Source of the DNA: Deltaproteobacteria bacterium | GTDB lineage: Bacteria > Myxococcota_A > Polyangia > JAAYKL01 | Assembly (NCBI GenBank): GCA_030595125.1 | Contig: JAUVDV010000007.1 | Location: forward strand, 9,039 to 73,038 | Reading direction: 5' to 3' | DNA length: 64,000 bases | Shown here: piece by piece, positions 12,438-64,000 of the stretch | Layout of the letters: the number at the start of each line of letters is the position of its first letter | Position numbering within the stretch: position 1 is the stretch's first letter | The notes under the pieces: generated by a model | Database searches by the model: none | What the model saw: only the letters and a program-made list of their open reading frames with translations | What the model was told of the DNA's origin: nothing | Program-made: the position numbers and the translations under genes

Positions 12438-12564
12438 CTCACGTTCCGCGCCCTCTTTATCCATAAACGGTCTTTGCCCTACACTTCGGTTGACAGACAC
12501 AAACCTCTTGGAGCCTAATTGACCGAAACCGCCATTCCCCGTGGGGGAAAAGGAGAGTCGACTC

Positions 12565-13362
12565 ATGATCCCATCGACGTTGCGCCAACCCCTTTTCGCA
12601 TTTTGCGGCTTTGTGTTTGTCACCGCTTCTGCCGTGCTGATGATCGGCTGTTGCGACGAGATCGAAGCAAGGAGAGCCGAACTCGAGCAGCTCAACATCA
12701 CGCGGGTCTCCGAGGTGAGAGACCTGCGCGCCAAAGTTGTGAGCATAGAGGAATTGCAGCAACAGCTCGCCGCGACCAAATCCAAGCTCGACTCCACTGC
12801 GGGTCGAATGAACGATCTGGAGGCGCGAGAGGAGCTGGCTGACAAGCGATTGCAGACTCTCAAGGACCTGCTCGAAAGGCTCAAGGGCGTGATCGAATCC
12901 GGTGATCTCACGGTGCGCATCAAGCGTGGACGCATGGTCCTCGAACTCCCCAGCGCGATCCTGTTCAAGTCGGGCGAGGCTGACCTGAGCGACAAGGGCA
13001 AGGAGACCCTCGACAAGGTCGCCACCGTGCTCAAGGATATCAAGGACCGGAACTTCCAGGTGGCCGGCCACACCGACAACGTGCCCCTGAGCAAGGACAA
13101 CCCATTCGGCAGCAATTGGCATCTCAGCGCGGCCCGCGCCGTGTCTGTGGTGCAGTACCTGGTCGAGCAAAAGGTGAACCCCAGGAACCTCTCGGCCGCG
13201 GGTTACTCCCGCTATCGCCCGGTCGCGTCCAACAAGGGCGCCAAGGGCAAGGCCCGCAACCGCCGGATCTCCATCGCGCTGATGCCCAACCTCAAGGAAC
13301 TCCCCGACCTGACCACCCTCGAGGCCGAGTTCGGCCTCAAGGAGCCCGAGGTGGGGTATTGA
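12565..13362 (+). CDS. OmpA/MotB C-terminal-domain lipoprotein with an N-terminal coiled coil
   Basis: RBS aaggagag 7 nt upstream. Lipobox VLMIGCC. Coiled-coil region. OmpA_C signature FQVAGHTDNVP...NWHLSAARAVSVVQYL...AAGYS...NRRISI. There is a paralog at 62215. Confidence 0.78.
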   Translation: MIPSTLRQPLFAFCGFVFVTASAVLMIGCCDEIEARRAELEQLNITRVSEVRDLRAKVVSIEELQQQLAATKSKLDSTAGRMNDLEAREELADKRLQTLKDLLERLKGVIESGDLTVRIKRGRMVLELPSAILFKSGEADLSDKGKETLDKVATVLKDIKDRNFQVAGHTDNVPLSKDNPFGSNWHLSAARAVSVVQYLVEQKVNPRNLSAAGYSRYRPVASNKGAKGKARNRRISIALMPNLKELPDLTTLEAEFGLKEPEVGY

Positions 13363-13375
13363 GGAAAGTCATCAG

Positions 13376-14029
13376 ATGAACGAGAAGACATGCCGCCTGG
13401 CCGTCCTTCTGTCCGGGGCCGGTTCAACCATGGTCAACCTGCAGGAGCATATAGAGCGGGGCGACGTTCCCGCCAGTATCGAGATCGTCGTATCCAGCCG
13501 GCGCGGGGTCAAGGGGCTGGAACGGGCGGAGAGTGTCGGCATCCCCACGAGAGTGCTCACCAGAAAGGGTTTCAGAAGGGAAGGGGGCCTCGATATTGAG
13601 GCCTACTCGGCGGCGCTGGCCGACTTGCTGGAGGAGTATTCCCCAGATCTGGTGGTGATGGCGGGCTTCATGACTCGCCTGGCCGAACCCCTGCTGTCCC
13701 GTTACCCGGTCATGAACGTGCACCCTGCGCTTTTGCCCATGTTCGGCGGCGAGGGATATTACGGTCATCACGTGCACGAGGCGGTGCTGGAGGCCGGGGT
13801 CAAGGTGTCGGGAGCGACCGTCCATTTCGCTGAGGCCGAGTACGATCAAGGCCCTATCATCATGCAGGAGGCGGTCGAAGTGCGGCACGACGACACCGCA
13901 GATACCCTGGCAGCCCGTGTACAGGATGCCGAGCGCAGGATTTACCCGAAGGCCGTCGCCGCCTTCGCCAGAGGGCTCATTCGGGTGGATGGGCGCAGGG
14001 CGATCCTGGCGCCTGTGGAGGGAGAATGA
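13376..14029 (+). CDS. purN: Phosphoribosylglycinamide formyltransferase
   Basis: LAVLLSGAGSTMVNL...NVHPALLPMFGG...SGATVHF, the formyl transferase signature. Confidence 0.85.
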   Translation: MNEKTCRLAVLLSGAGSTMVNLQEHIERGDVPASIEIVVSSRRGVKGLERAESVGIPTRVLTRKGFRREGGLDIEAYSAALADLLEEYSPDLVVMAGFMTRLAEPLLSRYPVMNVHPALLPMFGGEGYYGHHVHEAVLEAGVKVSGATVHFAEAEYDQGPIIMQEAVEVRHDDTADTLAARVQDAERRIYPKAVAAFARGLIRVDGRRAILAPVEGE

Positions 14030-22979: not shown

Positions 22980-23297
22980 CTAGTGCCCTATTGAGCGCGT
23001 GAGCAGCCGCTCAATTAATCCCTGACTGTAGGTGGTGAGTTCGGTGAAGACCACGCCCATACCCGGCGGATCGTCCTCCACGCGCACCACCTCGCCGGTG
23101 CCCTCGATGGTTTCGATGTCCTCCATGATGACCGTGAACCGCAGGTTGACATAGGTGCCGATCTCGAGCGGAACCTTGGACCGGATGAAGACACCGCTCC
23201 TCGAAATATTCGTCACGTACTCATGGATGAACGCGTCGAAGCTCTCGAACTCCTTGTTGATCGTGACTCGTTCCTGGTCTCTATTTGAATCGTTCAT
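22980..23297 (-). CDS. PilZ-domain protein (c-di-GMP-binding type)
   Basis: 105 aa starting MNDSNRDQERVTINKEFESFDAFIHEY...LSRSGVFIRS...GTYVNLRF...GEVVRV, which matches the PilZ fold pattern. RBS aggagg upstream. ATGA overlap with the rng stop. Confidence 0.65.
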   Translation of the reverse strand: MNDSNRDQERVTINKEFESFDAFIHEYVTNISRSGVFIRSKVPLEIGTYVNLRFTVIMEDIETIEGTGEVVRVEDDPPGMGVVFTELTTYSQGLIERLLTRSIGH

Positions 23298-24968: not shown

Positions 24969-25664
24969 TCAGGGCCTAATAATTTTGGCTCCTTTGGGGG
25001 GCACGAAGATGAATCGCTTGTGGCCGATGCCGATGTTGGTCTTGACGTTGGTCAGGGTGAAACGGGTGGCGGTGCCGGCGCGGTCGATCAGGACGACCCG
25101 GCTCACCGATGGGCAGGAACCTTCCATGGTCAGGAGTATACGTTCCACCAGCGGGATCGGTGTTCGGGGAACCAGCTCGACGACCCCTCGGGATCCTTTC
25201 GCCGGCTGCGCATCCCCTCCCACAAAACGGGTGTCGAACGCCTGTGTCTCGCGCTCTCCGAGCACAAAGCCAAATGCCAGCGCGACCATATCCTTGCGTG
25301 AAGATCCCTCGATGACGGTCCTGGTTTCAGGTTTCCAGGCGCGGACCACCTTTCCGTCTGAAACCACCAGCATGCGCTGCGGTTTCTTGTATTCCAGACG
25401 GATCCTCGATCCCCGACGGAGTTGAACCGTGCCCTCCATCACCTCCATGTCACCGCCCAGAACGTGGATTGTCTCCTGCGTGAAGTCGGCCTCCAGGCTG
25501 AACACACCATCGAGGCAACCACGTCCGTGGTCCAGCCATGCCTCGATCGGATCCGTCTGGGCGCCGAGTCGATCTCCGGGGAAAGAGGCCAGGGAGATCG
25601 TCGCCAGAACCCAGATACAGGCAACCGCCGGGGTAACTTTCAACGATGTGATGAAGTGTTTCAC
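24969..25664 (-). CDS. LolA-like periplasmic lipoprotein-carrier family protein
   Basis: Signal peptide. Size and beta-rich pattern resemble LolA/LppX-fold proteins. Assignment is tentative. Confidence 0.45.
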   Translation of the reverse strand: MKHFITSLKVTPAVACIWVLATISLASFPGDRLGAQTDPIEAWLDHGRGCLDGVFSLEADFTQETIHVLGGDMEVMEGTVQLRRGSRIRLEYKKPQRMLVVSDGKVVRAWKPETRTVIEGSSRKDMVALAFGFVLGERETQAFDTRFVGGDAQPAKGSRGVVELVPRTPIPLVERILLTMEGSCPSVSRVVLIDRAGTATRFTLTNVKTNIGIGHKRFIFVPPKGAKIIRP

Positions 25665-25672
25665 TGCTTGTC

Positions 25673-27013
25673 TCAGGGAAGGGCGATGGCCTGCCTCGCG
25701 GCCTCGAGGAGATCATTCATTTCCGATCCCCTGGTGAGATCCAGAACGCGAACACCCAAGCGGACGACCTCGGAGCGCCTGGTCTCCAGATGCGGAAGCA
25801 CCCCGTTCGCCAGGGAGGTATCGTCCGGTCCCTTCAGGCGCGTGGAAGTGATCTGAATAGCCGAACCGTCCTTGAACGGGTGAATAGTTTCCTGGGTGTC
25901 GACCCCGGCGGACCGACGACCGATCAGTATACCGCGCCCGGCTTTTCGAATGGCAGATGCGAAAATTTCCGCCAGGCCACTGGTTCCGCCGTTGATTACC
26001 ACTGCCACGGGAACGTCCAGGCGTTCACCGGGCGACCCGGGCTTCGCAGCCCATTTCCGGCTGCCCAGATCCCCGCGCATTTCCTTTGAACCGATGGAAC
26101 CCTTCTTGAGCAACAGGTCCGCCAGGGCGATCATTTCGTCCTCGCCGCCCGCCGCCGCGTTCCTCAGATCGAGCACCAGCCCGCCACAGGATCCGGCGAG
26201 TTCGCGAGCGACGGTTTTTGCCAGACCCTTTCCGAAATATCTCACGTGAATCGAGACCAGGTCCCCGTGACGTTCGAGCAAGAAGGGTGTGAAACTCCAC
26301 GGCGAATAACAGATCTTGATATCTCGTGTGACGCCTCCCCTCCGGGTAACCGAAACCTGGATCTTGTGACCGTCCGCTCCCCACAGCGCGGCGAGCGCAA
26401 TCGGACGCCTGACTCCCGAAACGCCCTTGCCGTTGATCCGGATGATCCTGTCCCCGTGAAGCAGGCCCGCATCGTACGCAGGGGAGCCCTCGTGAACCGC
26501 TATGATCTCGAGGACGTCGTCTTTTGGATAGACTCGCAATCCGAAGCCGACGAAATCTTCCGGAATGGATCCGATCTTCTTGTACGCGGACGGCAGAATG
26601 TAGAACCCGGAGGGATCTTCCATCGCCTCGACCATGGCGTCCATCACGTAGCGCTGGAAGACCGTCTTGTCGAAATCCTCTTGTGAAAGGCTGGCGGCGG
26701 CCAGGGCGGACTCCAGAATTCCGCGCCATGCTCGATTAGCGTCCGGTCCGCTCACCCCCTTTTTTGGAGGGAACATGCCGGGGATCTTGCATCCGGGCGC
26801 CGCAAGATCTTCCCCGCAGACACGCACAGTCCCCGCGCGCAACAGTGTTGCCTCGGGCGGTGGGGCAAGGGCCTTGTTCCGCAGAAAACGCAGGGCCTTT
26901 TCCACCAGGGGCATGGTGACGTTGACGCCCCGCGAGTCGGCAGAGGTCAAAACCGGGATCATTAGAGCACAAAGGAGAACGACCGTTTTAGTGTTCCGAA
27001 GGCGTCCGCGCAT
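25673..27013 (-). CDS. ctp: C-terminal processing peptidase, S41 family, with a PDZ domain
   Basis: PDZ-like GFGLRVYPKDDVLEIIAVHEGSPAYDAGLLHGDRIIRING. S41 core GLVLDLRNAAAGG...VVINGGTSGLAEIFASA. Confidence 0.8.
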   Translation of the reverse strand: MRGRLRNTKTVVLLCALMIPVLTSADSRGVNVTMPLVEKALRFLRNKALAPPPEATLLRAGTVRVCGEDLAAPGCKIPGMFPPKKGVSGPDANRAWRGILESALAAASLSQEDFDKTVFQRYVMDAMVEAMEDPSGFYILPSAYKKIGSIPEDFVGFGLRVYPKDDVLEIIAVHEGSPAYDAGLLHGDRIIRINGKGVSGVRRPIALAALWGADGHKIQVSVTRRGGVTRDIKICYSPWSFTPFLLERHGDLVSIHVRYFGKGLAKTVARELAGSCGGLVLDLRNAAAGGEDEMIALADLLLKKGSIGSKEMRGDLGSRKWAAKPGSPGERLDVPVAVVINGGTSGLAEIFASAIRKAGRGILIGRRSAGVDTQETIHPFKDGSAIQITSTRLKGPDDTSLANGVLPHLETRRSEVVRLGVRVLDLTRGSEMNDLLEAARQAIALP

Positions 27014-27033
27014 GATCGATGAGTTCCTTTCCC

Positions 27034-27894
27034 TCAAGGATGCCAACCCCATCCAGGATACCATCGATTCGCGATCATGTAGAAGAGCACGGTATCGATC
27101 ATCAGGTGCAGGATGATGATGTAGGCGAGCGATTGGGTTTTCTTGTACGTGTAGCCTTGAATCAGCGCAAAGGCGAAGATCAATATCGGGCCCACACCGA
27201 AGAAAGCCATGTCGTAGAGAAAGGCGGTGAAGAAGACCGCCTGGGCCAGGTTTGCCTCACGGAAACTGAAGTGTCGCAACAGGAGCACGAAGGCGAAGTT
27301 GATCCACGCCAGCTCGTCCCATATTCCGACCAGGTTGCAACCCCAGAATATTCGCCAAAGGCCCTCGGTCCGGTCTCCTTCCAGGGGCAGTGGCCATGCG
27401 TGATGGAGGGTCGGCGTCCATTTGAAGAAATAGGCCCACAGTATTGCGAAAGCCAGAGCGGTGCCCAGAGGCAGCCAGATCCACATTTGGAGGGACCATC
27501 GGCCGCTGAACCACCGGTAGTCCAGCGGTGTCTTGAGCCAGTATTTTGCGAGCAGGGCGGGCACCACAAGGATCCCGACGCCGAGCGTGAGGGTCAGTTC
27601 GAGCACGTGCAAATTGGATGTGTCCCCGTCGACCCTGGTGAACCAGAGCACCGTCATTGTGTACGCGAAAAGGACGCAGGTCTTGAACCAATTTCGGTCC
27701 GGACAGCGCCTGGAGAGCAGCAACGATGCCCCCATGAGGGGCCAGCCGAAGAGATTCCAGAAGGGCCAGCCGACCCGGTCTTCCTTGAGGGCGACGATGA
27801 AGATCATGGCCGCGCACATGAGCCACAGAGAGACCCTCTTGGACGTCAACAGGGACGTTGCGCGGGGTGTGTTGTCCATTGCGTTCGTCATCAT
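27034..27894 (-). CDS. CPBP (CAAX protease/Abi) family intramembrane metalloprotease
   Basis: Polytopic protein. Motif 1 EE-like WDELAWINFAFVLLLRHF (E-E-x-x-x-R), then FxxxH-like TAFLYDMAFFG, then HLMIDT (HxxxD/N). Confidence 0.65.
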   Translation of the reverse strand: MMTNAMDNTPRATSLLTSKRVSLWLMCAAMIFIVALKEDRVGWPFWNLFGWPLMGASLLLSRRCPDRNWFKTCVLFAYTMTVLWFTRVDGDTSNLHVLELTLTLGVGILVVPALLAKYWLKTPLDYRWFSGRWSLQMWIWLPLGTALAFAILWAYFFKWTPTLHHAWPLPLEGDRTEGLWRIFWGCNLVGIWDELAWINFAFVLLLRHFSFREANLAQAVFFTAFLYDMAFFGVGPILIFAFALIQGYTYKKTQSLAYIIILHLMIDTVLFYMIANRWYPGWGWHP

Positions 27895-57988: not shown

Positions 57989-58459
57989 CTATGCGAACTC
58001 TTCGATGAGCTTGTCGTCCCACTCATCCGCAACTGTGGCGACCGTGTGTAAAATGTCCTCGAACTCGGCATATTCGAGCCCGTTGACGGAGCGGAGCGCG
58101 CGCAGGCACACAGTGTCGGTTTCCTTTTCGATGGCAAACGCGCCGTCCGAGGTGGCCAGGAAATTCAACTCGAGCAGGTGTCTGTAAAACTCGGTACTAC
58201 GTTCTTTCGGGATCTTCATTATGCGAGACAGGAAGAGCAACACACCCTGCTCCTCGATGACGTTGATCCCGATGGTCGCCGACCCCCTGTTTATGCTCGT
58301 GTATCCGTCACCATCTAGGGGATCGAACATCACCGAGTCACCGGTCGCCTCCGACACCTTCTGAGAAAACCTCTTGATGAACTCGTTGATCAACGCAACC
58401 GCAGTGGGATGCTCCTGCCCCGTATCCCGATCGATATATCGGTTGTCCATCTCGGTCAT
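57989..58459 (-). CDS. YbjN-like domain protein (putative sensory-transduction/chaperone-like)
   Basis: Size and secondary-structure pattern only. Weak. Confidence 0.45.
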   Translation of the reverse strand: MTEMDNRYIDRDTGQEHPTAVALINEFIKRFSQKVSEATGDSVMFDPLDGDGYTSINRGSATIGINVIEEQGVLLFLSRIMKIPKERSTEFYRHLLELNFLATSDGAFAIEKETDTVCLRALRSVNGLEYAEFEDILHTVATVADEWDDKLIEEFA

Positions 58460-58544: not shown

Positions 58545-59567
58545 CTATCTGAATCCAACAATCTCTTCGAGTGCAATTGTAACCATGCGATCGAGCTTCG
58601 ACGGTTCCTGCGCGGGCAACGGCAACCTGCGGCTCCGAAGGAACTCCTCCGTCCAGGTAGTCTCGAACCGCGCCGCGCTCATCCGTCGCTTGAAAAACGC
58701 CCCGACGGACCAGCGGCACGTCTTGTCCATGCGAGACAGCGCACGACGGGCACCCGCCGCCAGATCGAATCCAGCCGGAACATGCTCCCTCGCAGACACC
58801 GAGATCCCGTCCACGATTTTCCCGGTGTCGCCTCCGAATCGAGAGAGGAGGTGGAGGGTTCTGCCACCGGGGTCCGGATCGACATCCTTCAGGCCTACCA
58901 CCACGTCGACCAGGTAATCCAGATCCGTGAGGATGAGCTGCCCGTTTCCCTCCCAGGGGGTGGAGTCCCCGGCGGCCAGGCACAGATGAACCAGCGGGCA
59001 CAGATTTTCACCCTCTCCGACGATCCAGCCTGACCGGATCACCGTTATGGGTACGTCTCCGAAGTGCCTGCGATACACCCGCTCGGCGGCGAGACGCATC
59101 TTTGCAGATCCCCCGTCGAACCGCTGGCCCACGATAAGATCCACTTCGCGAAAAGTTTCTCGGTGATTTCCCGCAACGTCCAGATGGGACAACACGACCA
59201 CCTGTTGAAGGTTCTTCGCCGCCGCCGCCAGCTCCAGCACCTCTCGACCGGTGGTCCTGGCGGATTCGAGGTCGTCTCCGTCCGGATAGGAACACGGGGG
59301 CACCAGGTTGTAAATCGATGAGACCTGTTCGCTCAGGCGTCCGAACCGTTCCCCGGACAAGCCGAAATCAATATGGTTCCAGTCGCCTTCAATAATCTCG
59401 ATTTTCGCGCTCTCTCGTCGGATTAGCTCCCTTGCTCGAGGTAAATCGGATGGGCGGACTATTACCTCGACGGACATCTCGTTGCCGGATGCCAGTCCCA
59501 GGGCCACGCGACAGGCCGGCTCCGCAGGGAAACCCAGGATCAGAGCTGTTCTGCCGGGTTCGCTCAT
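58545..59567 (-). CDS. Hypothetical protein. Possibly a degenerate NAD(P)-binding epimerase/reductase-like fold.
   Basis: 340-aa ORF whose stop overlaps the coaE start. No clean GxxGxxG. Confidence 0.4.
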   Translation of the reverse strand: MSEPGRTALILGFPAEPACRVALGLASGNEMSVEVIVRPSDLPRARELIRRESAKIEIIEGDWNHIDFGLSGERFGRLSEQVSSIYNLVPPCSYPDGDDLESARTTGREVLELAAAAKNLQQVVVLSHLDVAGNHRETFREVDLIVGQRFDGGSAKMRLAAERVYRRHFGDVPITVIRSGWIVGEGENLCPLVHLCLAAGDSTPWEGNGQLILTDLDYLVDVVVGLKDVDPDPGGRTLHLLSRFGGDTGKIVDGISVSAREHVPAGFDLAAGARRALSRMDKTCRWSVGAFFKRRMSAARFETTWTEEFLRSRRLPLPAQEPSKLDRMVTIALEEIVGFR

Positions 59568-60226: not shown

Positions 60227-60853
60227 TTAGAAGAGCCCGTCAAGGGAGTCGTCATCCCCGCCCTCGTCTTCCTCCGGCTCCGGCTCCGCCATGCCGCCCA
60301 CTTCCTTCTCATCCTCCGGAGTTGTCCCGAAGCCGGCGGAAGTGGCGAAATCGTCGTCCATCACCGTGGTCGGGCCCTTGTTATCGGCGGGTTTGAGGCG
60401 CTTCTTTGCGCGCTGCAGTTTGACCGCCTCCCATTTTTTTCCCGCGTCGTCCTCGCCGTAACCCCACTCGCCCTTGACCCAGTGCACCATACGTTTCTTG
60501 GTGGTGCCTTCTTCAATGACAATGTACTTGAAATACCCGCCTCCCGTGGAATCGGCTATCTTGCCGCCCACCTTGGTGTTGGTGCTGGTCCATCGGAATT
60601 TATACAGATCTCCGGTGACCGTACCCTCCATGCGTCCGTACCTGCTGTCGCTCTCGAAGAGCCCGACCGCGTTTGATCCATCCACCGTGATCTCCAAACG
60701 GCCCCATGCGGGGGACTGATATATCCCGTCGAAGGTGCCGTCCTGCGGCATATTTCCCGCCCTGGCAGCGGATTTTCCGGGCTGAGGGCCGCCACAGCCG
60801 AATGCCACAGCCAAACCCAGAACGATAATTGTGTTTACAATCCAGTTTTTCAT
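60227..60853 (-). CDS. Hypothetical lipoprotein with an acidic C-terminal tail
   Basis: RBS gggagga. Lipobox VLGLAVAFGCGG. C-terminus EPEPEEDEGGDDD. Confidence 0.45.
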   Translation of the reverse strand: MKNWIVNTIIVLGLAVAFGCGGPQPGKSAARAGNMPQDGTFDGIYQSPAWGRLEITVDGSNAVGLFESDSRYGRMEGTVTGDLYKFRWTSTNTKVGGKIADSTGGGYFKYIVIEEGTTKKRMVHWVKGEWGYGEDDAGKKWEAVKLQRAKKRLKPADNKGPTTVMDDDFATSAGFGTTPEDEKEVGGMAEPEPEEDEGGDDDSLDGLF

Positions 60854-61099: not shown

Positions 61100-61582
61100 A
61101 TGGTCGATCCGCAGATGGTGATGTACGAGGAGGAGTTCAACCACATTCAGGTGGTTTGCGACAAGCTCGTACGCGATGCTAATGCCCTCGTGGTTTTCAT
61201 AGTGGACAAGAACGGGCAGTTGATTGCCACGTCAGGGGAATACGAGCATCTGGACACAACGTCCCTGGCTTCCCTGACCGCAGGCAACATCGCTGCAACC
61301 GGTGGAATGGCGAAGCTCCTCAAGGAGAACGAGTTCGCCACCCAGTTTCATGAGGGCGAGCATCAGAACATTCATATTCAGATAGTCGGGCAGCGTGTCA
61401 TTCTGGTAGTCATTTTCGACGAGCGTTCCTCCCTGGGCCTGGTGAGGTTGAGGGTTCGCAAGGCAACCGCTGAGCTGGACAGGATCTTCGAGAGTCTGTT
61501 GAGAAAAGTTCAGGATCCCGGCACGCCTTCACCGTTCGCCGAGATCACCGATGATGACATCGACAACTTGTTCAACGATTAG
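61100..61582 (+). CDS. mglB: Roadblock/LC7-domain protein MglB (GAP of MglA)
   Basis: 160 aa. It lies immediately upstream of mglA, 18 bp apart. Roadblock-like VVFIVDKNGQLIATSGE. Confidence 0.82.
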   Translation: MVDPQMVMYEEEFNHIQVVCDKLVRDANALVVFIVDKNGQLIATSGEYEHLDTTSLASLTAGNIAATGGMAKLLKENEFATQFHEGEHQNIHIQIVGQRVILVVIFDERSSLGLVRLRVRKATAELDRIFESLLRKVQDPGTPSPFAEITDDDIDNLFND

Positions 61583-61599
61583 GAAAAGGGCCCCAATAG

Positions 61600-62187
61600 A
61601 TGTCGTTCATCAATTACTCATCGCGCGAAATCAACTGCAAGATCGTTTACTATGGTCCCGGGTTATGCGGAAAGACAACCAATCTCCAGTACATTTACAA
61701 CCGTACAAATCCCGATGCCAAGGGCAAGATGATCTCCCTTGCCACCGAAACCGAGAGGACATTGTTTTTCGACTTTCTGCCGCTCTCGTTGGGAGAAATT
61801 CGCGGATTTAAAACAAGGTTCCATCTCTACACCGTCCCAGGGCAAGTCTTCTACGATGCTTCGAGAAAGCTCATCCTCAAGGGGGTGGACGGTGTTATTT
61901 TCGTGGCCGACTCTCAGATTGACCGCATGGAAGCCAACATCGAGTCACTGGAGAACCTGCGGTATAACCTGCAAGAGCAAGGTTACGAGCTCGACAATCT
62001 TCCGTATGTGGTCCAGTACAACAAGCGCGATCTGCCGAACGTGGCCTCCGTCGACGAGCTTCGCGAATTGCTGAACATCACAATGGCTCCCGATTTCGAG
62101 GCCATCTCTACCACCGGCCAGGGAGTTTTCGATACCCTCAAGGCGGTCGCCAAGGCGGTGCTCACGGATCTCAAGCGCGGCAGCTGA
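61600..62187 (+). CDS. mglA: Ras-like small GTPase MglA (motility/polarity regulator)
   Basis: MSFINYSSREINCKIVYYGPGLCGKTTNLQYIYN...LPLSLGEIRGFKTRFHLYTVPGQVFYDASRKLILKGVDGV.FVADSQ..RMEAN.ESLENL...YNKRDLPN. By recollection this is nearly identical to M. xanthus MglA. Confidence 0.93.
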   Translation: MSFINYSSREINCKIVYYGPGLCGKTTNLQYIYNRTNPDAKGKMISLATETERTLFFDFLPLSLGEIRGFKTRFHLYTVPGQVFYDASRKLILKGVDGVIFVADSQIDRMEANIESLENLRYNLQEQGYELDNLPYVVQYNKRDLPNVASVDELRELLNITMAPDFEAISTTGQGVFDTLKAVAKAVLTDLKRGS

Positions 62188-62214
62188 TTTAATAGCCTAC
62201 ACAAGGAGACAACA

Positions 62215-63036
62215 ATGAAAATTCCGGTTTGCCTTTTCATCGGATTCTCGATGGTATTGCTCATCGCCGCCGGTTGCGGCATTCCCGAGGAGCAGTACAA
62301 CGCCAAGGTCAAGGAAGCGGCAAAGTTGCGGGCGGATCTGGACCAGGCCACTGCGGCGAACAAGAAGCTCGAGGAGCAGCTCTTCGAAATGCGCTCCGAG
62401 AACCAGACTCTGGCGGCTCGCTTGCTGGAGCTGGGTGATGACGTTGAGAAGCTCCTGGGCGAGAAGAGCGCTCTCTCTTCCGACTTGCAGCAAACACGGG
62501 ATCGCGAGATGCGCCTGCGCCGTGAGCAGGAAGCCCAGCGCGCCAGGATGGCCAAGTACCGCCAGGTCATCGAGAAGTTCAAGGCCCTGATCAGCTCCGG
62601 CAAGCTCAAGATCCGCATCGTTCGCGGACAGCTGGTGGTGGAGCTGTCATCCAGCATCCTGTTCGAGTCGGGCAAGGCCATTCTGAGCGAGGAGGGCGAG
62701 GCGGCCCTTGCGGAGTTGGCGTCCATCCTGTCCACCATCAAGGGTCGAAGCTTCCAGGTCGCCGGGCACACAGACAATGTCCCCATGAAGTCCAAAAAAT
62801 TCCCATCCAACTGGGAGCTCTCCGGGGAGCGTGCGGTCAAGGTTGTCAGGTTCCTCCAGGACTCGGGCGTCAACCCGAACAACCTGTCGGCGGCTGGCTA
62901 TGCAGAATTCCAGCCGGCAACGAGCAACGACACCAGAGAAGGCAAGGCCAGTAATCGCCGTATCGAAATCGTTCTCATGCCCAACCTCGACGAGCTCCCG
63001 GACCTCAGCGATCTCGAAAGCGACATCGGCAAGTAA
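62215..63036 (+). CDS. OmpA/MotB C-terminal-domain lipoprotein with an N-terminal coiled coil (paralog of 12565-13362)
   Basis: RBS aaggaga. Lipobox LLIAAGCG. FQVAGHTDNVP...NWELSGERAVKVVRFL...AAGYAEF...NRRIEIV. Confidence 0.78.
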   Translation: MKIPVCLFIGFSMVLLIAAGCGIPEEQYNAKVKEAAKLRADLDQATAANKKLEEQLFEMRSENQTLAARLLELGDDVEKLLGEKSALSSDLQQTRDREMRLRREQEAQRARMAKYRQVIEKFKALISSGKLKIRIVRGQLVVELSSSILFESGKAILSEEGEAALAELASILSTIKGRSFQVAGHTDNVPMKSKKFPSNWELSGERAVKVVRFLQDSGVNPNNLSAAGYAEFQPATSNDTREGKASNRRIEIVLMPNLDELPDLSDLESDIGK

Positions 63037-63041
63037 CCACC

Positions 63042-63977
63042 GTGAACGACACCGAGTTACCACGCTGCGCCGTCGGCCTGGATATCGGATCCAATACATT
63101 CAGTTGTGCAGAGATCGTGGTTGACCCGTCGGGTGCCCCCCTCGTCGTCAAGGACATTTCGAGGGCTGTCCGGCTCTCGGAAGATCTCTTGCCCGGCGGG
63201 CGGCTCAAGCAATCTGCGGTAGCTCGTGGACTCGACGCCCTGGGCGATCTGGCGCGGGATTTCGACATGGCAAGGAAGCCGTTTCGCGTTGTGGCAACAG
63301 CGGTTCTGAGGATGACGTCGCACCCCCAAGACTTCACCGACCCGGCAAAAGAAATTCTGGGCTCCGACGTGGAAATCATCGACGGTGAAGGGGAGGCGCT
63401 GCTCGTCAGCAGGGGCGCGGTACTCGATCTCGAGCCGGCCGCGAACGGAGCCGGCTGGATAATCGCGGACGTCGGAGGTCAGTCGACCGAGGTGTGCCAG
63501 ATCGGTGGTGCAGCCACGGCGAACCCGGTCAGCATGCCCCTCGGGGTGGTGGGGCTCACCGAGCGGTTTCTCAACGACGATCCGCCAACAGTTGAACAGA
63601 TCTCAAACCTCGAAGATTACGTGTTCGAGCAAGTTTCGAAACTCTTACCCGGTAACCCGGCCGGCCAGCTCGTGGGCGTCGCCGGAACCGCAACCACCCT
63701 GGGGATGCTGGAGCTTGGCCGGGCGAGATGGGACAGGTCGGCGGTCCACGGACTGGAGATCTCCCGATCGGCGAGCCTCGATTGGCAAGAGCGAATGACG
63801 GAAATCGACGCACAGGCTCGTCAGGATCGTTTTGGCATCACGGGTCTGCGGGCGGATGTCTTCCCTGCCGGTCTCTGTATAATCAATACGTTGTTGAAGT
63901 ACTTCGAGCGAGATGTATTCACGGTCAGCGCCAACGGCCTGCGGATCGGCGCCGCGCTTTCCATTTTGAAAGGTTAA
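63042..63977 (+). CDS. Ppx/GppA-family phosphatase (N-terminal actin-like ATPase domains only)
   Basis: GTG start. AVGLDIGSNTFSC...ATAVLRMTS...DGEGEALL...ADVGGQSTEV. Confidence 0.72.
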   Translation: MNDTELPRCAVGLDIGSNTFSCAEIVVDPSGAPLVVKDISRAVRLSEDLLPGGRLKQSAVARGLDALGDLARDFDMARKPFRVVATAVLRMTSHPQDFTDPAKEILGSDVEIIDGEGEALLVSRGAVLDLEPAANGAGWIIADVGGQSTEVCQIGGAATANPVSMPLGVVGLTERFLNDDPPTVEQISNLEDYVFEQVSKLLPGNPAGQLVGVAGTATTLGMLELGRARWDRSAVHGLEISRSASLDWQERMTEIDAQARQDRFGITGLRADVFPAGLCIINTLLKYFERDVFTVSANGLRIGAALSILKG

Positions 63978-64000
63978 AAAATGGATCTCGGACTGACAGG

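Follow-up and report, generated by a model that had tools for sequence, protein, structure and literature searches.

A coiled-coil OmpA-domain lipoprotein gene and a Ppx/GppA phosphatase gene behind mglBA in an uncultured myxobacterium: probably an older gene pair that moved

Introduction

When a gene starts 27 nt after a well-known motility switch and public pipelines label its product "MotB," does it belong to the motility machinery? The question is raised by a stretch of 64,000 nucleotides of DNA (here called the window), in which the polarity genes mglB and mglA are followed by genes for a lipoprotein with an OmpA-like domain and for a phosphatase of the Ppx/GppA family. Such a lipoprotein looks like a motility part, but adjacency is not function, and the comparative data point instead to an older gene pair that was relocated once, in one lineage. 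The features of the locus, in window coordinates, are as follows.

60227..60850, minus strand: lipoprotein-like gene, family unassigned, divergent and upstream of mglB; listed for context and not counted with the system
61100..61582, plus strand: mglB, 160 aa, Roadblock/LC7-fold GAP for MglA
61600..62187, plus strand: mglA, 195 aa, Ras-like polarity GTPase
62188..62214, plus strand: mglA-lipoprotein spacer, 27 nt; ribosome-binding site AAGGAG, 6 nt ahead of the start codon ATG; too short for a terminator
62215..63036, plus strand: coiled-coil OmpA lipoprotein, 273 aa, with a lipobox signal peptide, a coiled coil and a MotB-type OmpA-like domain
63042..63977, plus strand: short two-domain Ppx/GppA-family phosphatase, 311 aa, without the C-terminal HD domain; cytoplasmic

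The polarity switch and its host

Open reading frames, Pfam and NCBIfam bear out the four genes from mglB to ppx at the positions and with the names that the original prediction had given them. They lie head to tail on the plus strand with gaps of 17, 27 and 5 nt; the short spacing had been noted correctly, but the 18 and 28 bp reported for the first two gaps were each off by one.

MglB matches the Pfam family Robl_LC7 (E = 4.7e-16) and the NCBIfam MglB model (E = 7e-26). Its 91 bits against the Thermus-type NCBIfam MglB equivalog are below the cutoff of 200, which is expected because that model was built on another lineage. The M. xanthus MglB structures 6h5b, 6hjm and 6izw match the protein with E values of about 5e-67 and 66% identity (103/156). 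Conservation extends to the MglA-contacting segment SLASLTAGN and to the C-terminal helix, SPFAEITDDDIDNLF. MglA, assigned to the small GTPases by Pfam and NCBIfam, shares 155 of 194 residues (80%) with its M. xanthus counterpart in an alignment without gaps (PDB 6hjh; E = 3e-105). It has the features of a group 1 Ras-like GTPase: the P-loop (GPGLCGKTT), the Arg finger (intrinsic Arg53), T-x-x-G-Q in place of D-x-x-G-Q (TVPGQ at 78 to 82, with Thr78 and Gln82) and NKxD (NKRD at 141 to 144). The cognate mglB stands directly upstream, across the 17-nt gap, and likewise in essentially all 80 reference loci. Two genes in this order, with a short gap, are also found in M. xanthus (MXAN_1925/1926), and every catalytic and interface residue that was checked in the M. 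xanthus proteins is present in those of the window. Judged by sequence, positions 61100 to 62187 encode an ordinary MglA/MglB polarity switch (GTPase plus GAP), orthologous to the M. xanthus pair. The gene identification in the original prediction holds, with an MglA identity above the 60% line that had been drawn for it, but "almost identical," as the MglA proteins had been called, is too strong a description of 80%, or of 66% for MglB.

In M. xanthus the described operon is mglBA; upstream of it lie the divergent operon masABK and, further out, recR (PMC3546991). The window differs in that mglA is followed by two more genes, after gaps of 27 and 5 nt, and in that the gene upstream of mglB encodes an unrelated small lipoprotein.

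The original prediction had also read membership in the Myxococcota from MglA. The placement stands, but MglA alone is not proof of it, since proteins with 80 to 85% identity occur in Geobacter, Geomonas, Desulfuromonadales and metagenome-assembled genomes labelled Nitrospirota. Window MglB is 76 to 89% identical to the proteins of Polyangia-type loci versus 63 to 67% for Geobacter-type loci, and it is on these MglB identities, together with lipoprotein orthologs in Sandaracinus and Polyangia, that the placement rests. These protein relationships assign the host to the Myxococcota as an uncultured, Polyangia-like member.

Architecture of the lipoprotein

The product of 62215-63036 has the signature of a bacterial lipoprotein: its signal peptide runs into a lipobox (...LLIAAG-C21-G), and Cys21-Gly22 does not vary among 44 aligned orthologs and is present in every N terminus inspected. 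After the signal peptide come a helical or coiled-coil stretch of ~103 residues (25 to 127) and an OmpA-like domain (approximately 130 to 257). Heptads can be followed in one register, without a break, from residue 24 to about 135, and the AlphaFold2 model (mean pLDDT, 83) has one helix from 25 to 127 at a pLDDT of about 90. The protein scores 72 bits against Pfam OmpA (PF00691; E = 5.6e-20; cutoff, 27.2). Residues H185, D187, N199/W200, R206 and R248/R249 are invariant in the 44 aligned orthologs. They include the Asp and Arg positions that are conserved in the mDAP-binding site (D187, R206, R248/R249), and the domain is a putative peptidoglycan binder. One might guess from the Gly at position +2 that the protein is anchored in the outer membrane.

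The orthologous family is very large, with >4000 and >7000 database matches. Defined by the lipobox, the ~100-residue coiled coil and the MotB-type OmpA domain, it represents, as far as these matches can be read, a large and previously uncharacterized Myxococcota family with thousands of members, for which the role of a spacer or tether in the envelope is a reasonable proposal. Nothing relevant to a coiled-coil OmpA lipoprotein in myxobacteria was found in the literature searched.

The best PDB sequence matches are the periplasmic domains of MotB, PomB and MotS, in agreement with Foldseek. B. subtilis MotB aligns to the C-terminal region (about residues 94 to 257; E = 3e-25), superposition of the model with MotS, PomB and MotB gives an rmsd of 2.3 to 2.8 Å and a TM(target) of about 0.8, and the motifs GHTD...SNW.LS..RA...NRRIE are common to the lipoprotein and the flagellar stator B subunits. 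Scores against the NCBIfam MotB, MotD and MotS models are all below the cutoffs (at most 152 versus at least 250 bits). MotB, PomB and MotS possess an N-terminal transmembrane helix with a proton- or ion-binding Asp and a plug, whereas the lipoprotein has neither; unlike MotB, it begins with a signal peptide, and its mature form passes from the Cys straight into the ~100-residue helix. No partner of the MotA/TolQ/ExbB type was present among the window genes scanned or the called genes of the related loci L081 to L089. True membership of the MotB or stator proteins was rejected on these grounds (no transmembrane helix, no Asp, no MotA partner), and the labels "chemotaxis protein MotB" and "endoflagellar motor protein" that annotation pipelines give this lipoprotein family are, in our view, overannotations.

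Two well-known envelope lipoproteins offer partial parallels. Like Lpp, the protein has a lipidated N terminus and then a coiled coil able to set the membrane-to-wall distance; periplasm width is controlled by Lpp length, according to one study (PMC8824477). Like Pal, it is a lipoprotein that carries a noncovalent OmpA-like peptidoglycan-binding domain. Lpp, however, has about 58 residues and is covalently attached via its C-terminal Lys, whereas here a helix of ~103 residues leads to an OmpA-like end, and Pal has a short linker in place of such a coiled coil and is encoded in a tol-pal cluster. Genes of the tol type were not found adjacent to the lipoprotein gene, either in the window or in the relatives' loci scanned, and PDB Pal is only a weak match (E = 1e-4). 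Pal identity was ruled out by gene context and architecture, and on context and sequence relationships the lipoprotein is assigned to neither the Lpp nor the Pal family. PapS of Rhodospirillum was rejected as the nearest known protein, its N-terminal domain being globular and not a coiled coil (PMC11369160). The "peptidoglycan-binding protein" models of the PRK09039 type (NCBIfam NF006543-6) have the coiled-coil and OmpA layout in common with the lipoprotein (query 34 to 254 versus model 113 to 339 of 342), but its scores of 79 to 112 bits are far under their cutoffs of 305 to 615, its N terminus bears a lipobox, and the models are themselves uncharacterized.

The window holds exactly two such lipoprotein genes. 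The second, whose presence had been predicted correctly, is the following.

12541..13362, plus strand: paralogous coiled-coil OmpA lipoprotein, start at 12541 (GTG) or 12565 (ATG), Pfam OmpA E = 3.5e-22

With its lipobox (LMIGC), coiled-coil heptads and OmpA domain, it has the same architecture as the product of 62215-63036, to which it is 46% identical in a local alignment (105/226) and 41% identical over about 278 aa in tblastn. The gene that comes after it (13376-14029) is not a ppx gene and encodes a purN-like formyltransferase (Formyl_trans_N).

The Ppx/GppA protein

The last gene of the four scores 140 bits against Pfam Ppx-GppA (PF02541; E = 1e-40; cutoff, 27) and 168 bits against the NCBIfam exopolyphosphatase model TIGR03706, below the cutoff of 307; the cutoff of the GppA equivalog is likewise missed. 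The best PDB match, over the full length, is the Aquifex aeolicus Ppx/GppA protein of about 310 aa (2j4r/1t6c; E = 1e-31), which has the same length and catalytic motifs. The latter are intact in the window protein (DIGSN14, GEGEA115 and DVGGQSTE, to residue 145), which has the two ASKHA domains and is a putative polyP or pppGpp enzyme. Short-type Ppx/GppA enzymes can use pppGpp as well as polyP, as has been established for the Aquifex enzyme. We found nothing relevant to an OmpA/MotB-Ppx pairing or to an M. xanthus Ppx in the literature searched.

Transcription and conservation of the gene order

In the relatives L081 to L084, the spacer between mglA and the lipoprotein gene measures 26 to 74 nt. 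From mglB to the end of ppx, no terminator-like sites were seen save one inside the 3' end of ppx; the promoter and terminator scan yielded 1 promoter-like site versus 1.2 expected and 2 terminator-like sites versus 3.8 expected. Because the spacer is only 27 nt long and no terminator intervenes, the lipoprotein and Ppx genes probably share a single transcript with mglBA, started at the mglBA promoter.

Viewed from the side of mglA, the arrangement is rare. Among 80 reference-genome mglA loci, the lipoprotein gene was found downstream of mglA in two: in L001 it is adjacent and followed by ppx, and in L003 it lies 2.7 kb from mglA, with three genes between. This contradicts an adjacency to mglBA across the Myxococcota, which the original prediction had considered; what is conserved is the adjacency in one narrow clade, in which the block is kept despite differing flanks. 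None of the 80 loci has a ppx gene at mglA without the lipoprotein gene. Downstream recurrence was scored in 68 of the loci, and the most recurrent gene family occurs in at most 7 of them, in agreement with the wide variation described for group 1 MglA neighborhoods (PMC4316618).

Viewed from the side of the lipoprotein, the orthologs at 91, 75, 71 and 67% identity are all found in the order mglB-mglA-OmpA-Ppx, and L084 keeps the four-gene block between unrelated flanking genes. The orthologs at 61, 59, 53 and 49% identity, including that of Sandaracinus amylolyticus, retain Ppx and lack mglBA. The same trend runs through the wider set of loci, the counts for which are limited by the shortness of most metagenome contigs: at an identity to the window lipoprotein of at least 65%, Ppx is present in 4/4 and mglA in 5/5 loci; at 53 to 64%, Ppx is present in 4/4, and mglA is adjacent in one locus, nearby in one and absent in three; at 45 to 52%, the figures are 5/21 for Ppx and 0/18 for mglA; and below 45%, they are 0/5 for both. 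Overall, Ppx follows the lipoprotein in 13 of the 34 informative loci. A universal lipoprotein-Ppx pair was rejected on its absence from the other 21 in this metagenome sample, an absence upheld by profile HMM and so not due to tblastn insensitivity. Where it exists, the pair occurs in at least 7 different genomic contexts, with gaps of -4 to 74 nt. By these gene orders the more persistent partner of the lipoprotein, overlooked in the original prediction, is the Ppx gene and not mglA.

In a neighbor-joining tree that is rough and has weak deeper nodes, all mglBA-linked lipoproteins group together with one copy whose flanks could not be read, and this clade is recovered in 499 of 500 bootstraps. 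CarD/CdnL is encoded downstream in ten Ppx-less loci, with RNase E/G further on in some; the CarD/CdnL-RNase E/G order is the same in the Ppx-bearing loci L087, L103, L158 and L161, and more distant lipoprotein orthologs often have either Ppx or a CarD/CdnL-RNase E/G-PilZ block behind them. In the window, the RNase E/G and PilZ genes lie at 23 to 25 kb, without the lipoprotein-Ppx pair.

Origin and possible roles of the arrangement

We consider it likely that the locus consists of an ordinary mglBA operon and an older lipoprotein-Ppx pair that moved behind it once, and that the lipoprotein is a general envelope strut. The pair would be older than, and separate from, mglBA; in one clade ancestor it would have moved from a place upstream of cdnL-rng-pilZ to just behind mglA, a direction that we infer. 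Lipidated at Cys21, the lipoprotein would be anchored there in a membrane, reach out from it with a coiled coil about 15 nm long and grip peptidoglycan with its MotB-type OmpA-like domain, so that it would act as a strut or spacer tying the membrane to the cell wall, like Braun's lipoprotein and Pal combined. As the lipoprotein stands beside mglBA in one small group of uncultured myxobacteria only, it is most likely a neighbor moved in by rearrangement. Between the two options that had been offered for it, a component of motility or focal-adhesion machinery or an unrelated neighbor, the 2 of 80 loci favor the latter; the lipoprotein is probably not a dedicated motility part, and we infer that it has no functional tie to MglA.

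Some observations do not sit easily with this reading. The block survives in L084 and L001 despite changed flanks, and its spacers are tight (26 to 74 nt); inertia may not be the whole cause, and selection for coexpression with mglBA could have contributed. In type, the peptidoglycan-binding domain is specifically that of stators (MotB/PomB/MotS), which would suit a force-bearing role. With the deeper nodes of the tree weak, any order of gain and loss of Ppx is tentative, and so is the direction of the move.

The kept block, its tight spacers and the stator-type domain also speak for a different reading, to which we give a small chance: that in this clade the lipoprotein is an accessory of MglA-controlled motility, a peptidoglycan anchor for gliding or pilus complexes that was recruited into the mglBA operon. 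MotB serves as a wall anchor for the flagellar stator, and AgmT does so for M. xanthus gliding. The tight spacers without a terminator, the retention of the block in L084 and L001 and an OmpA-like domain closest to stator anchors would all fit such a role. So would the older context of the gene, where genes for PilZ and FHA-PATAN proteins lie no more than about 5 kb away; an earlier study remarked on PATAN domains in the vicinity of MglB homologs (PMC4316618). Against it, 78 of the 80 mglA loci lack the linkage, which is also missing in all orthologs below ~59% identity, including that of the gliding species Sandaracinus amylolyticus, and three inserted genes are tolerated in L003. The protein has no MotA/TolQ-type partner, transmembrane helix or Asp, the paralog adjoins purN, and a family of this size (>4000 and >7000 matches) is what would be expected of a housekeeping envelope protein. 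If the arrangement were functional after all, mglBA would be fused in one operon with a rigid, stator-type-anchored rod of ~15 nm, an unrecognized wall anchor for the MglA-controlled gliding or pilus machinery. More broadly, the family may play in the Myxococcota the part that Braun's lipoprotein plays elsewhere and set the membrane-wall distance; we regard all this as a doubtful prospect. The clades with the (probably cotranscribed) mglBA linkage and those without it provide a natural experiment for tests of a link between the polarity switch and the cell wall.

It also seems unlikely that the lipoprotein and Ppx are coupled to each other, for instance in envelope stress or polyphosphate-linked wall remodeling. 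Such coupling would account for their recurrent adjacency in at least 7 contexts at gaps of -4 to 74 nt; however, the two proteins occupy different compartments, the lipoprotein the periplasm and Ppx the cytoplasm, 21 of the 34 informative loci, many of them otherwise syntenic, are without Ppx, and no such pair was found in the literature searched. A functional unit of mglA and Ppx/GppA, in which tuning of guanine nucleotides or of (p)ppGpp and polyP would link starvation to the GTPase with the lipoprotein as a passenger, is very improbable: the intact catalytic motifs, the activity of short-type enzymes such as that of Aquifex on pppGpp and polyP and the presence of Ppx at every scorable mglBA-linked locus are in its favor, but substrate specificity is not readable from sequence, no mglA locus of the 80 has Ppx without the lipoprotein, Ppx is missing from 21 lipoprotein loci, many otherwise syntenic, and in all non-mglBA loci it is linked to the lipoprotein and not to mglA.

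On the other side of mglBA, the divergent gene at 60227..60850 has no match in Pfam or NCBIfam; its homologs stand upstream of mglB in L003, L005, L025, L054, L056, L062, L070 and L078, as well as in L081 to L083.

Gene content of the mglBA block

All four genes come from families already known, their order (mglB-mglA-OmpA-Ppx) is a lineage-specific variant, and the finding is for the most part ordinary. Four open reading frames (ORFs) lie on the plus strand exactly where the original prediction placed them, and Pfam and NCBIfam bear out the names it gave them.

61100-61582, plus strand: mglB, 160 aa
61600-62187, plus strand: mglA, 195 aa
62215-63036, plus strand: OmpA-domain coiled-coil lipoprotein (OmpA-CC), 273 aa
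63042-63977, plus strand: Ppx/GppA-family protein (Ppx), 311 aa

Gaps of 17, 27, and 5 nt separate the genes; in the second of these, between mglA and OmpA-CC, lies an AAGGAG ribosome-binding site. Since another plus-strand ORF (63981-64000) begins 3 nt past the ppx stop and exits the window, and a short-chain dehydrogenase gene (adh_short) overlaps or abuts ppx at the same position in three loci fetched through OmpA-CC orthologs (L081-L083), the transcription unit may extend past the four genes.

MglA aligns without gaps to Myxococcus xanthus MglA (PDB 6hjh; E=3e-105), with 155 of 194 residues identical (80%) and its hallmarks complete (P-loop, Arg53, T78-V-P-G-Q82, and NKRD); MglB shares 103 of 156 residues (66%) with its M. 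xanthus counterpart. By sequence, both are clearly orthologs of the M. xanthus proteins; the description of MglA as almost identical was overstated, although the value lies above the 60% set as a lower limit in that prediction. The Ppx gene encodes the short two-domain form of the family, with its catalytic motifs intact in the sequence, and is best matched over its full length by an Aquifex enzyme of ~310 aa.

The coiled-coil OmpA lipoprotein

OmpA-CC begins with a signal peptide closing in a lipobox, in which Cys21-Gly22 is invariant among 44 aligned orthologs. A single heptad register runs without a break from residue 24 to ~135, with 62-88% hydrophobic residues at positions a and d versus 15-35% at the others. 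In an AlphaFold2 model built from the 44 sequences (mean pLDDT, 83), residues 25-127 are predicted to form one helix of 103 residues, ~15 nm long, followed by an alpha/beta domain. In sequence and fold, this domain most resembles those with which the flagellar stator proteins MotB, PomB, and MotS and the type VI secretion anchor TssL bind peptidoglycan, and the OmpA-CC residues predicted to contact peptidoglycan are invariant in the same alignment. A fold search found the long helix and such an OmpA domain together in no solved structure.

Identity as MotB was ruled out: OmpA-CC lacks the transmembrane helix and its proton-binding Asp, and no partner gene of MotA type was found among the neighboring genes scanned. 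Every NCBIfam MotB-type score is well under its cutoff, and the public labels "chemotaxis protein MotB" and "endoflagellar motor protein" for this family are over-annotations. The family is very large: of the candidates scored, 4187 and 7634 matched at E<=1e-10. Exactly two copies lie in the window; the second (12541 or 12565 to 13362), also predicted originally, is real and has the same architecture, with 46% identity over 226 aa. All 120 of the best matches listed are nearer to the copy behind mglA.

Neighborhoods of mglA and of the lipoprotein

We sampled 80 mglA loci from species-representative genomes, covering Polyangia, Kofleriaceae, Anaeromyxobacter, Sorangium, Minicystis, Geobacter/Geomonas, Desulfuromonadales, and some Nitrospirota-labelled metagenome-assembled genomes (MAGs). 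The gene mglB is immediately 5' of mglA in essentially all of them, and a recR-containing cluster lies 5' in ~28, in agreement with the M. xanthus mgl map (PMC3546991). At most 7 of 68 loci share any one gene family 3' of mglA; the neighborhoods of group 1 MglA have been noted to "vary widely" (PMC4316618). OmpA-CC lies 3' of mglA in only two of the 80, L001 and L003, which also have the top MglA identity (88%), and its expected synteny with mglBA thus does not hold for Myxococcota as a whole. In L001 it adjoins mglA and is followed by Ppx; in L003 it is 2.7 kb away, with three genes between. The latter, in this close relative, encode 440, 230, and 157 aa (L003 5164-7659), the first and third with lipoprotein-like N termini.

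Seen from the lipoprotein, the four-gene order surrounds all orthologs of 91, 75, 71, and 67% identity; three share the wider context of the window, and the fourth (L084) has unrelated flanks. Orthologs at 61, 59, 53, and 49% identity, and that of Sandaracinus amylolyticus, from its complete genome, have Ppx directly downstream and no mglBA nearby, each in a different upstream context. A further 80 OmpA-CC loci came from a metagenome scan and were scored by tblastn and a Ppx profile HMM.

Genes next to OmpA-CC, by identity to the window copy
>=65%: Ppx downstream 4/4; mglA adjacent 5/5
53-64%: Ppx 4/4; mglA adjacent in 1, nearby in 1, absent in 3
45-52%: Ppx 5/21; mglA 0/18
<45%: Ppx 0/5; mglA 0/5

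The mglBA-linked copies all group, along with one copy whose short flanks precluded scoring, in a clade recovered in 499 of 500 neighbor-joining bootstraps; the juxtaposition thus had a single origin.

Origin and meaning of the arrangement

In ten OmpA-CC loci lacking Ppx, the next gene is of the CarD/CdnL family, followed, where contigs are long enough, by RNase E/G, PilZ, and a convergent FHA-PATAN gene. Four loci (L087, L103, L158, and L161) have the identical order with Ppx between lipoprotein and CarD, so that Ppx is variably present in an otherwise syntenic block. In L087 (6001-12189), the order is OmpA-CC, Ppx, CarD/CdnL, a small ORF, RNase E/G, PilZ, DnaJ, and convergent FHA-PATAN; the OmpA-CC-CarD/CdnL block recurs in L094, L100, L103, L119, L134, L158, and L161. 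PATAN domains are also reported close to homologs of MglB (PMC4316618). The window keeps RNase E/G and PilZ in the order of the block, with two other genes at the expected place of OmpA-Ppx-CarD.

22980-23297, minus strand: PilZ, 77% identical to that of L087
23294-24922, minus strand: RNase E/G
24969-25664, minus strand: LolA, at the expected place
25673-27064: S41/PDZ peptidase, at the expected place

The simplest history has the lipoprotein and Ppx genes moving together, in the clade ancestor, from the CarD-RNase E/G-PilZ block to a position 3' of mglA, a direction that we infer.

The best-supported reading, which we consider likely, is that rearrangement joined an ordinary mglBA polarity switch, a general envelope-strut lipoprotein, and a cytoplasmic Ppx phosphatase, which because of it are probably cotranscribed in this clade. 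OmpA-CC would be lipid anchored at Cys21, its modeled rod of ~15 nm probably being a dimer or trimer, and would hold peptidoglycan noncovalently. By the lipoprotein sorting rules, Gly at +2 would be an outer membrane signal, and our guess from the sequence is that the anchor lies there. That the block outlasts the turnover of its flanks in L084 and L001 is the main support for three other proposals: that OmpA-CC is a true motility anchor, that MglA and the GppA-type protein share a nucleotide link, or that lipoprotein and Ppx form a functional pair. Weighing mainly against all three are the narrow distribution, the genes inserted in L003, and the inconstant occurrence of Ppx, and we regard each proposal as improbable. 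Under the preferred reading of an ordinary switch joined to a general strut, mglA and OmpA-CC offer a clear case of adjacency without implied function, and the annotation of a large, unstudied family of coiled-coil OmpA lipoproteins of Myxococcota is corrected.

Other genes near mglBA

A PilZ ortholog of that in L087 and the window lies convergent, 0.4-2.6 kb 3' of mglA, in three Polyangiaceae loci (L043 11214-11504, L046 9096-9380, and L061 8965-9249). The finding of mglBA with 80-81% MglA identity in MAGs labelled Nitrospirota or Nitrospiraceae (L069 and L080) reflects either a real spread of group 1 MglA past the former Deltaproteobacteria or a mistake in binning or labelling. Upstream in the window (57989-58459 and 58545-59567, both minus strand) is a set comprising a CesT/YbjN-like chaperone-fold gene, an NAD_binding_4 reductase-like gene, and coaE, which is kept in L003 and L081-L083. 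Divergent from mglB, a small lipoprotein-like gene (60227-60850, minus strand; ...AVAFGCGG...) matches no Pfam or NCBIfam family. Eight or more further reference loci, spanning several Myxococcota families, carry homologs of it (32-41% identity) 0.7-4.8 kb 5' of mglB, and L081-L083 have them too; its linkage with mglBA is thus steadier than that of OmpA-CC.
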